A DNA stretch of 64,000 nt from Eledone cirrhosa (taxonomy: Eukaryota), in the NCBI GenBank assembly GCA_964016885.1, contig OZ024753.1, positions 44,826,001 to 44,890,000 of the forward strand. The letters run 5' to 3'. Made by a program: the position numbers and the translations under genes. Position 1 is the first letter of the stretch; each line of letters opens with the position of its first letter. Positions 6,238-57,389 of this stretch are shown here, piece by piece. The notes under the pieces are model-generated. The model saw only the letters and a program-made list of their open reading frames with translations, did no database searches and was not told the origin of the DNA.

Positions 6238-8480
6238 TGTATGTCTACATATGTGTGTCTATATATGTCTATATATGTGTGGCTATATATGTCTATATAT
6301 ATGTATGTCTATATATGTATGTATATGTATGTCTATATATGTGTGTCTATATATGTGTGTCTATATATGTCTATATGTATGTCTATATATATGTATGTCT
6401 ATATGTGTCTATATATATGTATGTCTATATATGTATGTATATGTATGTCTCTATATGTGTGTCTATATATGTCTATATATATGTATGTCTATATATGTAT
6501 GTATATGTATGTCTCTATATGTGTGTCTATATATGTCTATATATATATGTATGTCTATATGTGTCTATATATGTCTGTGTGTGTCTATATATGTATGTCT
6601 ATATATGTATGTCTATATGTGTATATGTATGTCTATATATATATGTCTACTTATGTGTATATGTATGTCTATATATGCCTATATATGTCTATATATGTAT
6701 GTATATGTGTGTCTATATATGTATGTCTATATATGTCTATATATGTGTGTCTATATATGTATGTCTACTTATGTGTATATGTATGTCTATATATGTCTAT
6801 ATATGTCTATATGTATGTCTATATATGTGTATATGTATGTATATGTATGTCTATATATGTCTATATATGTATGTCTATTTATGTGTATATATATGTCTAT
6901 ATATGTCTATATATGTATGTCTACTTATGTCTATATGTATGTCTATATATGTGTATATATATGTATATATATGTCTATATATATGTATATATATGTCTAT
7001 ATATGTATGTCTATATATGTATGTCTATATATGTATGTCTATGTATGTATGTCTACTTATGTCTATATGTATGTCTATATATGTCTATATATGTATATAT
7101 ATGTCTATATATGTCTATATATGTATGTCTACTTATGTCTATATGTATGTCTATATATATATATATGTCTATATATGTCTATATATATGTCTATATATGT
7201 ATGTCTATATATGTGTGTATGTCTATATATGTCTATATATATATATATGTCTACTTATGTGTCTATGCATGTCTATATATGTATGTCTACTTATGTCTAT
7301 ATGTATGTCTATATATGTCTATATATGTGTGTCTATTTATGTGTATATATGTCTATATGTATGTCTATATATGTCTATATATGTATGTCTACTTATGTGT
7401 ATATGTGTATCTATATATGTCTATATGTATGTCTATATATATATATGTCTATATATATGTCTATATATGTGTGTATATATGTCTATATATGTCTATATAT
7501 ATGTATGTCTACTTATGTGTCTATGTATGTCTATATATGTATGTCTACTTATGTCTATATGTATGTCTATATATGTATGTCTATTTATGTGTATATATGT
7601 ATGTCTACTTATGTGTATATATATGTCTATATATGTCTATATATGTGTATATATATGTCTATATATGTATGTCTATTTATGTGTATATATATGTCTATAT
7701 ATGTCTATATATGTCTATATATGTGTATATATATGTCTATATATGTCTATATATGTGTATATATATGTCTATATATATGTAAATATATGTCTACAGTTGA
7801 AAATTGAAAACTTGACTGTCACCACACATGATGAACCTGAAGATTGCGAAAGCATGAAAGTATTTGTTCAATTAACACTTAACATTTAATATTCTACCAT
7901 ACTATTTCATTATAATACCATTATACATTTTAAAGAATTGTAAATAAAACGAGTAAATCAAACAAAGTTGGAATTCCTTTTTATTAATATAATCTTCTAT
8001 ACACAATCATACACACCCGTGTATATTTATCTTTCTATCTATATATATGTCTATATATGTCGATATATGTGTATATATATGTATGTCTATATATGTGTAT
8101 ATATATGTCTATATATGTTTATATATGTCTATATATGTGTATATATATGTATGTCTATATATCTCTTTATATGTCTATATGTCTTTATATGTCTATATAT
8201 ATGACTATATATGTCTATATATGTCTATATATGTCTATATATATGACTATATATGTCTATATATGTCTATATATGTCTTTATATGTCTATATATGTCTAT
8301 ATATGTCTATATATATGACTATATATGTCTATATATGTCTATATATGTGTATATATGTCTATATATGTCTATATATGTCTATATATGACTATATATGTCT
8401 ATATATGTGTATATATATGTCTATATATGTCTATATATGTGTATATATATGTCTATATATGTCTATATATATGTGTGTCT
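6236..8480. repeat. TATATGTC / TATG-based simple satellite
   Basis: Continuous atatgtctat-type repeats, interrupted by unique sequence at 7792-8030. Confidence 0.95.
7832..7870 (+). ncRNA. Minimal type I hammerhead ribozyme motif (Penelope-like element type)
   Basis: Stem I tgaac/gttca; CUGAAGA at 7837-7843; U, stem II tgc-GAAA-gca, U; GAAA; near-palindromic stem III agtatt; UH = UU. Confidence 0.65.
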
Positions 8481-8645
8481 GAAAATTACCATGAGAAAGA
8501 TTGACAGAGGTGTATGTGTGGGTTTGTATACATATATGTGTACACGTGTGCGTATATGTATGCCTAGATATGTGTGTGTGTGTGTCAGACTTTGTATGTG
8601 TGTATATATTGTATAGAGGGAGAGAATGGGAGTGAGAAAGAGAGG

Positions 8646-8778
8646 AAGAATTGACCCCAGTACTTAACTGGTACTTTTTTTATTGACTTTGGGAGGATGA
8701 AAGGCAAAGTCGACCTCAGTGGGATTTGAACTCAGATTGCAGAGACTCAGAACAGACAACACAAAGCATTCTATGCAA
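8646..8778 (-). mobile_element. SINE fragment
   Basis: actggtact...ggatgaaaggcaaagtcgacctcagtgggatttgaactcag. Confidence 0.8.
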
Positions 8779-8779
8779 C

Positions 8780-9345
8780 ATATACATACATATATATGTG
8801 TGTGCAGGTATATATATATATATATATATATATATATATATATACATATACATATGTGTGTGTGTGTGTGTAGGTATATATATATATACATATAAATATG
8901 TGTGTGTGTGTAGGTATATATATATATATATATATACATATACATATGTGTGTGTGTGTGTGTGTGTGTAGGTATATATATATATATATATATATATATA
9001 TATATATATATATATATATACATATGTGTGTGTGTAGGTATATATATATATATATACATACATATACATATATGTGTGTGTGTAGGTATATATATATATA
9101 TATAAATATATATATATATATATATATACATATATATATATACATATGTGTGTGTGTGTAGGTATATATATATATATATATATATATATATATATATATA
9201 TATAAATATATATATATATATATATATATAAATATATATATATATATATATATATAAATATATATATATATATATATATATAAATATATATATATATATA
9301 TATATATATATATATATATATATATATATATATATATATATATAC
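8780..9345. repeat. Compound (TG)n-TAGG-(TA)n repeat and long (TA)n
   Basis: Repeated gtgtgtaggtatata...catatg units. Confidence 0.9.
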
Positions 9346-9354
9346 ACAGACATA

Positions 9355-54314: not shown

Positions 54315-54562
54315 TGTAATAATAATAAAAAGGATATGTTATGTCTTATAACGTTTACTGAGTAGAGACACGTGTTTCGCTATTGATCAGCTCAAGGTTC
54401 AATCTGTATTGTTACCACAATAGATGTCTGACACGCTTTTGATTCCAGAGTCGGGCTAGATTGATACAGATCAAATCTTGAGCTGATCAATAGTGAAACA
54501 CGCGTCACTACACAATAAACGTAATGAAGACATAACATATCATCCTTTTTATTATTATTACA
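54315..54562. repeat. ~100 bp-arm imperfect palindrome with a half-hammerhead on each strand
   Basis: gacacgtgtttc-gctattgatcagctcaag ... cttgagctgatcaatagt-gaaacacgcgtc; outer taataataaaaaggat / atcctttttattatta. Confidence 0.85.
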
Positions 54563-55757
54563 TATACATACATATATATATATATATATATATATCCAAA
54601 ATTAAATTAAGGGTGTCATGTCCAAGAGACATACGCCGTATTTAAAGTTCTAGTTAAACTTTAATTAGTTACCTACCTAGTTGTGTGTGCTTACACACTT
54701 TACAAATTATTCTCTGTGATTGTTTCATATGTTTATTTTAGATATATATATTTATGTCAATCAATTTCTAGTTGATATATATATATATATATATATATAT
54801 TTGTTTTTTCTGGCAATATTATTACAACAATATGACCCTCCTCAAGTATAACAATATATATATATATATATATATATACACACACACACACACATACATA
54901 CAAACATATATATATCTGTAGTTGATGGATGAGAGAAAACAGTACTCAATACTGAAGTAGAACTTAAATATTCATTTTATTATGGCTAAGTAGCAAAGCT
55001 TATTAATATGGAATTTCACCTGTGCACACACAGGATTATCATACGCAGGTAAAACTCAAGAGCAACAAAACTAACTACTTAGCCATAATAAATGAATATA
55101 TATATATATATATATATATGTGTGTGTGTAGAGAGAGAGAGAGAGAGAGAGAGAAAGAGAGAGAAAGAGAGAGAAAGAGAGAGAGTTAGTGGTGTTTCAT
55201 AGTGAAATATTGACCAATACAATAAATGTCACAGTCGAAATTCTTTAAACTTTTCCTAAAATCCTAAGAATAAAAGATTTGTAAAGGAAAGAAAAGATAA
55301 AATGTATGGCAGCAACAACTAATAATTATTTTTTCGACAATATCAGCTTAACTGGAATAACTATGGTTCCAAGATAAATTGTTACTATATTAGGGATGTC
55401 TCTTATACTAATATGATCCTTTAGCCCTTATCTCAGTATACTTCTAATGAAATTCACACCGAGAAACATGTAGGGTCTCCGATAATTGTGTGTTGGAAAA
55501 CAGGACACGGTTTAAGTCCGTCATATCTAAAGGTTTTGTACGATGATCAGTCAAATGTTTCAAACTCCCCAATGACTACAGCCTACTATTGTCTATGTGT
55601 GAGGACATAGTACTGTTTACTAACACACAGTCTCCTTTCTGTCATATATACTATATACACACGTATATATTTATATGTGTGTATACATATATAATTGTAA
55701 ATTAATGTATATTTCATCACACATACAATATTTCAATGTGTAGGTTAATGTATGTAT

Positions 55758-55962
55758 AATTGTTTCTACTTTTGGCACAAGGCCAGCAATTACCCAGTAC
55801 ATTACTGGTACTTTATTTTATCGACCCCGTAAGGATGAAAGGCAAAGTTAACCTCGGCGGGATTTGAACTCAGAATGGCAAGGGCCGTAACTCTATACGT
55901 CAAAGCGTGGCGTCCGACCCTCTACCGATACTGCCAATCCACCGCCCTTATGTTTTATAACA
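55758..55962 (-). mobile_element. SINE
   Basis: Near-identical to 11181-11390. Confidence 0.85.
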
Positions 55963-56703
55963 CAACATTTCTTTAGTCAACATCACTATCTATTTCTCAT
56001 AAGTTAATGTATATTTTATCACACTTACAATATTTCCTTAGTGAACACACCAATGTTTCCCAATCATTCTCTAGTACTGTCAGCCAGGAATTGGTAAGAA
56101 CTATGAAACATGAGATCCAGAATCATTGTCAAACAGTTCTAGGTAATAACACTCAAACATATCTTTACTACTCACTTGTGTATATACATCAATATATCCG
56201 ATATTTCGGTCTGCGGTCTCGTGTCAGTCTTAAATATATTTTACAAGTGACCTTTACTTGATGTCGTCTCAAGAGATTTTCTCCAAACAGAAACTTAAAA
56301 ATGTGATTTAAGGTAATTGGCAGCTCAGGTAATTTGAGAAAAATGTGTGTGTGTAGAGAGAGAAAGAGAGATCGGGCGAATATTAAATAGTTGTATATGT
56401 GGCACTGAAAGGAGAGATAGGAGAGCGTGAGAGAGATATCGATATAAACAAGACTGGTGTTACCACTGACACTGGTGATTTAGAAGTTGTCTATCTCCCG
56501 CCTGCAGTACAGCTGCTCTAATGGTGTGGCTTGGTTAGAATCAGCGGGTTTGGGGTTTTTTAAATGTTTTTTGGTGCAAAAGTTGCAGACAGACTGACAG
56601 ACTGACAGACAGAAATACCAGGTGGAAAAAGAGAGAAATTTTCCAGAATGAAAGCTGTTGTTGGCTTCTTTTATCAGCAACATAATTAGTAATTGATGAT
56701 TTA

Positions 56704-56838
56704 TCATCTGTTTACCCATCGTCGCATTGACTCCTCCCACTCAGTATTGCCACCTTCCTCATCGTCTGTTCGGATGTATGATTCTGCATCTGACTGCAAA
56801 TAGCTCTCCTCATCTGTCATATAACGATTCACCAATTC
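56704..56838 (-). CDS. Terminal coding exon with an acidic, Tyr-containing C-terminus; tentatively dystrobrevin-like
   Basis: Acceptor tttgtcttttgcag|, phase 0, ELVNRYMTDEESYLQSDAESYIRTDDEEGGNTEWEESMRRWVNR*; coding-like composition. The family call is from recall of invertebrate dystrobrevin tails and is unverified. Confidence 0.75.
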   Translation of the reverse strand, partial: ELVNRYMTDEESYLQSDAESYIRTDDEEGGNTEWEESMRRWVNR

Positions 56839-57389
56839 CTGCAAAAGACAAACGTTTAACAACAAATTTAGACAAGCAAAAAATGGTGCTCACCTGATGA
56901 TTCCGAACTGCATGAAACCTCATTATTAAAACATACTTGATAAGTACAAAACAACATTATAACTGCATCACATTAAAAATTAAAGACTTAAGTTTACGGC
57001 AAATTTTCACAAGGATCTGTCAACTAGTAAAAATACAATAAACATTTGAATTAATAAACCACATTAGTAAGATATCCTTTAAAAGTACAACCTTATGACT
57101 ACATCATATGAAAAACAGGCTCTCCTCACTCCCAGCATTGTTATTCAACCATCTCCTAAATATCTTATAAGTTTTATTTCATTTAGTAGCCACTTTCAGT
57201 TCTCTCCCTTCAATTGTATTTTGGAAATTATTCCCCTTGCTTTAATGCTTAAAAATGTGCTAACTGAATCGCACGTTATATAGAGTTGGGTCAGATCAAT
57301 ACAGAACCAACCTTGAGTTGATCAATTATGAAACAAGTGTCACACTTCAATAAATGTAATGGAGATCTAACACTTCGTCCTTATTATTA

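Follow-up and report, generated by a model that had tools for sequence, protein, structure and literature searches.

Hammerhead motifs with a U·U mismatch at the base of stem II in Penelope-like elements and retrozymes of Eledone cirrhosa

Hammerhead ribozymes in which stem II opens with a U·U mismatch at positions 10.1 and 11.1 have been described in several systems. Perreault et al. 2011 (PMC3088659) report natural examples and refer to U10.1·U11.1 as the most active and best-tolerated mismatch at the start of stem II; there it is a rare variant, and a filter rejected 10.1/11.1 mispairs unless these had been tested. In the axolotl, Cervera and de la Pena 2020 (PMC7229834) describe about 60,000 retrozyme hammerheads (HHR_Amex2) with U·U at the base of helix II, the monomer of which cleaves to 22% in 1 h and the dimer better, with circular RNA being made. 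Among Penelope-like elements (PLEs), U·U is present in 14 of the 25 Hydra-clade families in File S2 of Craig et al. 2021 (PMC8557442) by our own count (two share one motif), those with U·U coming from Hydra, sea cucumber and sea louse and thus from three phyla, although the authors class these hammerheads as canonical and do not remark on the mismatch in the text consulted. The present analysis concerns motifs of this kind in 64 kb of the genome of Eledone cirrhosa (GenBank assembly GCA_964016885.1, contig OZ024753.1, positions 44,826,001 to 44,890,000 of the forward strand; hereafter the window), together with their relatives at other loci (labelled L) of this genome. A first-pass annotation of the window had considered U·U possibly undescribed, which is contradicted by these publications; it is a published variant, of which this genome provides a large new example and no new ribozyme class. 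Quite probably, the motifs are type I hammerheads at the 3′ ends of PLEs and in retrozymes, in which U·U is tolerated rather than required and of which intact copies would cut themselves.

The assignment to type I hammerheads of PLEs, which had been proposed at first pass, is borne out by folds, by covariation and by linkage to open reading frames (ORFs) in two cases; the elements insert in (TA)n as 5′-truncated or inverted stubs, and a 310-nt unit forms tandem arrays. The window has a GC content of 30.7% and many TA/TG microsatellites, and the genome comprises 3.0 Gb in 1,796 contigs. CUGANGA-U-N8-14-U-GAAA occurs five times in the window, compared to a mean of 0.04 and a maximum of 1 in 100 block-wise dinucleotide shuffles, so that U·U motifs are commoner here than in shuffled sequence. 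Eight stretches had been put forward as independent ribozymes. Each was found where it had been placed, and the core CUGANGA/GAAA/UH is present at 7837, 42180, 53850, 20249, 51212 and 56894 and absent at 32621 and 55050, but all three stems of a type I hammerhead (stem I being open-ended) are possible only at 7837, 42180 and 53850. The idea of eight independent ribozymes is thus not supported, five sites being unable to fold as hammerheads, among them a duplicated pair and one site without a family. The hammerhead at 7832..7870 (plus strand) has 5 bp in stem I, 3 bp in stem II and the minimal palindromic stem III of its family, with one change in this copy, and a predicted cut after 7865. That at 42174..42224 (plus strand) is complete, with stems of 6, 3 and 4 bp, a GUA triplet and a predicted cut after 42218, as is that at 53845..53953 (plus strand), with stems I and II of 5 and 6 bp, a long insert in stem II, a palindromic stem III and a predicted cut after 53948. 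All have U·U instead of the R10.1-Y11.1 pair of the textbook consensus, which is not treated as defining because U·U is a published, cleaving exception.

The 42180 family is linked to the Hydra-clade PLEs. It has a fixed 3′ end and an optional tail, is seated in (TA)n, often as inverted pairs, and shows a TATA-like box some 25-35 nt ahead of the core. The family's hammerhead is preceded by a Hydra-type ORF at L240 (2,130 nt upstream) and at L324/L255 (about 3.0 kb upstream, judged by coordinates). Of the 30 loci that were fetched with the non-coding part of the family, a further four hold pieces of this ORF at 94-100% identity, at the locus edge or inverted. The Hydra clade is defined by a CxCX5C linker, by CxxC/CxH and by the lack of CCHH (PMC8557442), and the L324 ORF ends in a GIY-YIG domain without CCHH, with the CxCX5C linker, CxxC and CxH all present, its match to the Pfam GIY-YIG model being weak (E 0.005, below cut-off). 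This copy is 5′-truncated at RWK/DKT; the related ORFs at L213 and L036, 41-49% identical in the reverse transcriptase (RT), carry RWR/RWT and DKT. With the published Hydra-clade elements (PMC8557442) the family shares U·U, a stem II of 3-5 bp, a hammerhead near the element's 3′ end, the (TA)n target, inverted 5′-truncated copies and the tail. Differences from that account are the tens of thousands of copies in this genome, an 8-nt loop III and a 3′ untranslated region (UTR) with a microsatellite, which at 2.1-3.0 kb by itself would probably carry the family beyond the size of "generally under 3 kb" given for the clade. The hammerheads of this genome as a group have in common with the metazoan PLE hammerheads of Cervera and de la Pena 2014 (PMC4209133) the location in pseudo-long terminal repeats (pLTRs), the palindromic stem III and the solo and inverted stubs. 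Within the 42180 family, loop 2 and stem I vary, whereas 40 of 41 distinct copies retain U·U (some of the loci were fetched by U·U patterns). Stem I shows 20 cells with two-sided changes, a number matched by 1 of 500 shuffles, and measures based on pair type in this stem do not exceed shuffles. The family was recovered from sequencing runs X1 and X3 and not from X2 and X6, the kind of run being unrecorded and a blank uninformative.

Two other ORFs were considered as partners of this family. A decayed ORF at L047 is doubted, young copies having a different 3′ UTR and hammerhead, and the link was made through L240, L324/L255 and the window; the 821-aa ORF at L036 was rejected, its repeats bearing a long-stem bulged hammerhead. 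Two young Hydra-type PLEs exist alongside. One (L213:1531-1577, L217, L220, L224) has an intact frame of 832 codons in dozens of places and a hammerhead with C for U4 and A10.1·G11.1 in both terminal repeats; apparently this element was recently active, and its hammerhead departs from the consensus in these two places. The other (L036:5629-8091, L053-L082; 56 scored copies at 98-100%) has a hammerhead with a long AU-rich stem II in both repeats. Pfam found nothing on either of these two ORFs.

The link between ORF and hammerhead is also found in the window. On the minus strand, 41925..42162 contains the last 26 codons of a Hydra-clade endonuclease (42162-42085; 80.8% amino-acid identity, E 7e-8, to the L324 ORF) and the start of the 3′ UTR (88.9% over 234 nt to L240), directly inverted against the 3′ end of the family with hammerhead, tail and (TA)n at 42157..42322 (plus strand; 96.4% over 166 nt to L240). 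From there the 3′ UTR enters a 10.6-kb TA/TG microsatellite (31294..41896, minus strand), at the place where a microsatellite is found in the family, and reappears at 31304-30917 as the unique part that precedes the hammerhead in the 3′ UTR of the Hydra-clade element (30917..31304, minus strand; 74.9% over 418 nt to L240); no hammerhead core follows on the minus strand. Because the ORF tail is inverted and the 3′ UTR runs through the microsatellite, 30917-42322 is interpreted as a single insertion whose 3′ end is inverted. Inside the microsatellite lies a truncated 3′ end of the same UUC/GAA family (32621..32681, plus strand; 96.7% over 61 nt to L240) with G8 changed to A and without stem I. 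At L240, L255 and L324 the 3′ UTR holds 1.5-2.4 kb of degenerate TA/TG microsatellite with landmark motifs common to the copies; 17 of 29 long copies carry the microsatellite through 800-1400 nt upstream and the others stop earlier, and the 10.6 kb of the window copy are without the shared landmarks. It is possible that the element propagates the sequence into which it inserts.

The 7837 family leads to a different clade. It has 6,187 matches in the genome, and with both positions left free U·U was found in 98 of 100 among the matches listed. An ORF with RT and GIY-YIG lies about 390 nt upstream at L272, L281, L291 and L292; its pieces at L325 and L292 contain GxKF, DKG, YLDD, a CX4CxxC linker and a C-terminal CCHH GIY-YIG domain, with Pfam matches to GIY-YIG (E 1e-6) and RVT_1 (E 0.001, below cut-off). 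By these motifs, the 7837 hammerhead is identified as the 3′ stub of a Neptune/Nematis-type PLE, and its ORF is only 22% identical to the Hydra ORF of the 42180 family. At L325:1900-3330 an upstream open frame of 476 codons overlaps the start of the RT frame, and the element lies there as an inverted pair. For the 53850 family (40 places scored, relatives at 85-93%), 30 loci yielded 27 copies that could be parsed, of which 24 show U·U. At L306 the family is preceded, at a distance of 605 nt, by a Hydra-like endonuclease, as is a relative at L090, at 733 nt; these two loci suggest a tie to the Hydra clade, the weaker of the links. Pfam gave nothing credible on five ORFs of the window. The fixation of U·U extends to retrozymes and, among PLEs, to two or more clades that are deeply separated. 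The earlier claim of fixation across independent families is therefore upheld as to several families, unrelated stems and at least two PLE clades, and not as to independent origin. The Hydra-linked families probably inherited the mismatch, since it is widespread in Hydra-clade PLEs of three phyla.

The retrozymes are represented outside the window by a tandem unit of 310 nt with U·U and a palindromic stem III, arranged in two-armed inverted arrays. The unit has the traits of a non-LTR (non-long terminal repeat) retrozyme: it is tandem, non-coding and within 170-400 nt, it holds one type I hammerhead per unit, and it forms a self-paired circle with a circular fold of -67.8 kcal/mol (z -4.4 against 60 shuffles). 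It resembles the axolotl HHR_Amex2 retrozyme (PMC7229834) in being type I, U·U and tandem (about 350 nt in the axolotl, where cleavage is dimer-assisted). In the axolotl, however, U·U occurs in one of two families, whereas here it occurs in many, in protein-coding PLEs as well, and an A-U form coexists with it: the 310-nt motif has 14,867 U·U matches versus 4,091 with another base at 10.1, the latter being A-U in 100 of 100 among the matches listed, in arrays. Homogeneous 310-nt arrays of the U·U and of the A-U form, as two-armed inverted repeats, were seen at L010, L231 and L042, and further retrozymes of about 466-490 nt carry G-C or U·U. In runs X1 and X2, whose kind is unrecorded, the unit is one closed exact contig, and a go-back joint is present in all four runs; a closed contig is no proof of circular RNA, because tandem DNA yields the same contig. 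The unit L010:1670-1979 was found without differences, closed or nearly closed, in X1, X2 and X6, which bear the labels of three different organisms. Retrozymes have been proposed to derive from pLTRs (bioRxiv 10.64898/2026.07.22.740005).

Genome-wide matches were counted with an interior of 8-14 nt followed by GAAAC, placing A·C, C·C, long stems and GAAAG/GAAAT outside the counts. This gave 90,995 matches with U·U (319 in the control), 13,236 with G-C (99), 3,315 with U10.1 and A, C or G as partner (878), which formed no family, and 26,060 with A, C or G at 10.1 and A, G or U at 11.1 (3,988). The U·U share of the four counts is 68%, which overstates its share of all hammerheads because of the forms left uncounted. 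In a 1-Mb sample (100 stretches of 10 kb, 90 over eight contigs and 10 beside the window) a structural descriptor found 69 motifs, and 0 in the reversed control: 29 U·U, 13 A-U, 11 bulged G-C, 6 G-C, 4 A·G, 3 C·A, 2 U-A and 1 A·A, with U·U in 19 of the 42 distinct sequences. A search blind to pairing gave 33 U·U matches in the same sample versus 0 in the control, with 14 distinct interiors, over which 39 of 42 stem II positions pair compared to a shuffled mean of 22.3, confirming the covariation between families that had been proposed. None of 5000 shuffles reaches 39, a figure that is no probability because related interiors are not independent. Among the unrelated stems of the U·U families at these loci are UUC/GAA, UGC/GCA, AGCU/AGCU, UUCU/AGAA, CC/GG, CGC/GCG and CAC/GUG, besides two forms with a long stem. 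At L033, L041, L050, L051, L098, L103, L138 and L232 there are families in which 10.1/11.1 is A·A, C·C, C·A, A·G or C-G, and in several of these stem II is long.

These counts bear on the notion that U·U is a chance product or merely what mutation has left of dead G-C copies in a genome rich in AT. The low GC content of the window and the damage to most of its copies would fit, but in young, nearly identical arrays decay would have had to alter the same two positions each time, the matches exceed their controls (90,995 versus 319, and 33 versus 0), and the form is conserved in other phyla (PMC8557442). This explanation is scarcely credible as a whole; it is ruled out for the families and possible for the site at 56894 alone.

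How such motifs are found depends on what is required at 10.1/11.1. With pairing required there, the 1-Mb sample gave 23 motifs, none of them U·U, and the window none; with pairing and stem III freed, the sample gave 67 motifs, 28-29 of them U·U, and 7837 and 42180 were recovered in the window. The statement that standard descriptors miss U·U thus applies to those that demand the pair and not to the PLE descriptor of 2014, which permits extra N10 and N11 and whose paper has U·U in the Hydra row of Fig. S3 (PMC4209133). When emulated, that descriptor yielded 4 motifs in the sample and 0 in the window, whose motifs escape it through the length of stem III, as no more than two bases may stand between GAAA and UH. 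The consensus of that paper has a bulged nucleotide, G10.1-C11.1 and a long stem II, a form that is also present in this genome in other PLE families (11 of the 69 motifs). A register of bulge plus pair was considered for the U·U families and rejected, as it pairs in 1 of 29. Rfam at the gathering score had 0 matches in 14 sources, the G-C controls L013 and L023 included, and the failure is consequently not specific to U·U. Among the 150 of 519 matches listed from an Rfam scan of the window by E-value there was no hammerhead; there were microRNA-like matches on microsatellites and two to Phe-leader.

If the motifs are tolerated variants of working hammerheads, the RNA of the element would undergo cleavage after H17. 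Where stem III is a palindrome of 1-2 bp (7837, 53850 and the 310-nt unit), this would happen mainly in the dimer, whereas the 42180 family, with 4 bp in stem III, may be able to cleave as a monomer. The PLE reverse transcriptase would then use the cut or circular RNA as template at a nick made by the endonuclease in (TA)n. In the textbook hammerhead core, N7 of G10.1 binds a metal ion, a ligand that would be lost with U·U, so that the rate would be lowered and not abolished. The weak U·U wobble would keep the helix stacked under the sheared A9·G12, which is described as adjoining G10.1-C11.1 (PMC11300833), at some cost in rate. The abundance of U·U would follow the amplification of few families, and most genomic copies are most likely dead stubs. 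Tolerance is favored because families with A-U, A·G, C·A and A·A have spread as well.

Several observations weigh against this account. Five of the eight window sites are unable to form a hammerhead. Taken in isolation, 5 of 5 motifs are no more stable than their shuffles (z -0.2 to +1.4), and for 42180 and 53850 the minimum-energy prediction is a fold other than the hammerhead; such thermodynamic z-scores neither support nor separate the window sites. No family arose in which U10.1 faces a base other than U (3,315 versus 878 in the control), hinting that U·U is specifically kept. In the anole, PLE insertion in vitro proceeds without need for hammerhead cleavage, hammerhead mutants being without effect and no reads ending at the cut site in the data consulted (PMC11167929). 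The anole result, together with the low in vitro activity of PLE hammerheads, the many mismatch types and the C4 core in a young family, would fit a motif maintained for its value as a structural signal, for the PLE protein or the promoter region, with catalysis weak or dispensable and 10.1/11.1 consequently free to drift. This is improbable, however, considering that motifs with unrelated stems preserve the catalytic core CUGANGA/GAAA/UH and that a U·U hammerhead is proven to cleave in the axolotl (PMC7229834).

It is somewhat less improbable, though still rather unlikely, that U·U was selected as a tuning device, a weak stem II slowing the cut and sparing uncut or circular RNA for reverse transcription, and that it arose or was captured repeatedly in the Hydra clade, the Neptune/Nematis-type family, the retrozymes and the axolotl. 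The same mismatch does occur with ORFs that are 22% identical, it is near-fixed in three families when the positions are left free (98 of 100 among the matches listed, 40 of 41 and 24 of 27), and short-stem U·U motifs are about 7 times commoner than G-C. But the A-U variant of the 310-nt retrozyme also reached thousands of copies, G-C retrozymes build arrays of 30 or more units, and fixation within a family follows from descent from a single master copy. As U-A and U·G never became established and U·U is present in two clades, selection or capture still has room beside the tolerance that is preferred here.

Of the eight window sites, four (20249, 32621, 42180 and 51212) belong to one family. 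The UUC/GAA-family stubs at 20243..20293 (core 20249) and 51206..51256 (core 51212), both on the plus strand, have U·U and a broken stem I with 1 bp left, the second being a copy of the first; they lie in one segmental duplication (19659-20423 = 50624-51382, 96.9% identity) and therefore count as one event. The minus-strand site 55014..55050, inside an inverted repeat, is a decayed copy of a further family with an altered core and relatives in at least four loci (L228, L182, L045 and L163). At 56894..56920 (plus strand) an isolated core with U·U has 1 adjacent bp in each of stems II and I and no proper stem; it was rejected as a family, as no other genome match exists at up to 3 mismatches. 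A chance core is unlikely in 64 kb because the genome-wide control rate is low, and the site is tentatively read as an old, heavily decayed copy. Around these sites, blocks of a segmental duplication (12197-22136 / 42448-53546) are 86-99% identical and include a tandem repeat of 87-104 nt (16048-17234 and 46245-47566); tandem arrays lie at 61281-64000 (39 nt x 68 copies) and 17869-18789 (36 nt x 26 copies).

Within the literature searched, which included few subscription papers, none treats U·U as the main form of a genome or as common to PLE clades. What is new here is the scale, the reach over two PLE clades and the matched pair of U·U and A-U retrozymes. A trait of Hydra-clade PLEs that had gone unremarked is pointed out and extended to a Neptune/Nematis-type family, and searches that require the pair can lose much of a genome's hammerheads (23 versus 67 motifs in the 1-Mb sample). 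On a reading that is possible, though less likely than not, 10.1/11.1 is an evolvable dial in the hammerheads of animal retroelements: most short-stem hammerheads in this genome lack the textbook pair, U·U became fixed in two PLE clades through capture of a Hydra-type hammerhead or through convergence, and near-isogenic U·U and A-U forms of the 310-nt unit amplify together. The matched natural variants, U·U and A-U in one unit, serve the question of what hammerheads do for PLEs, and if such a dial is real, they would constitute a natural experiment on cleavage rate versus retroelement success.

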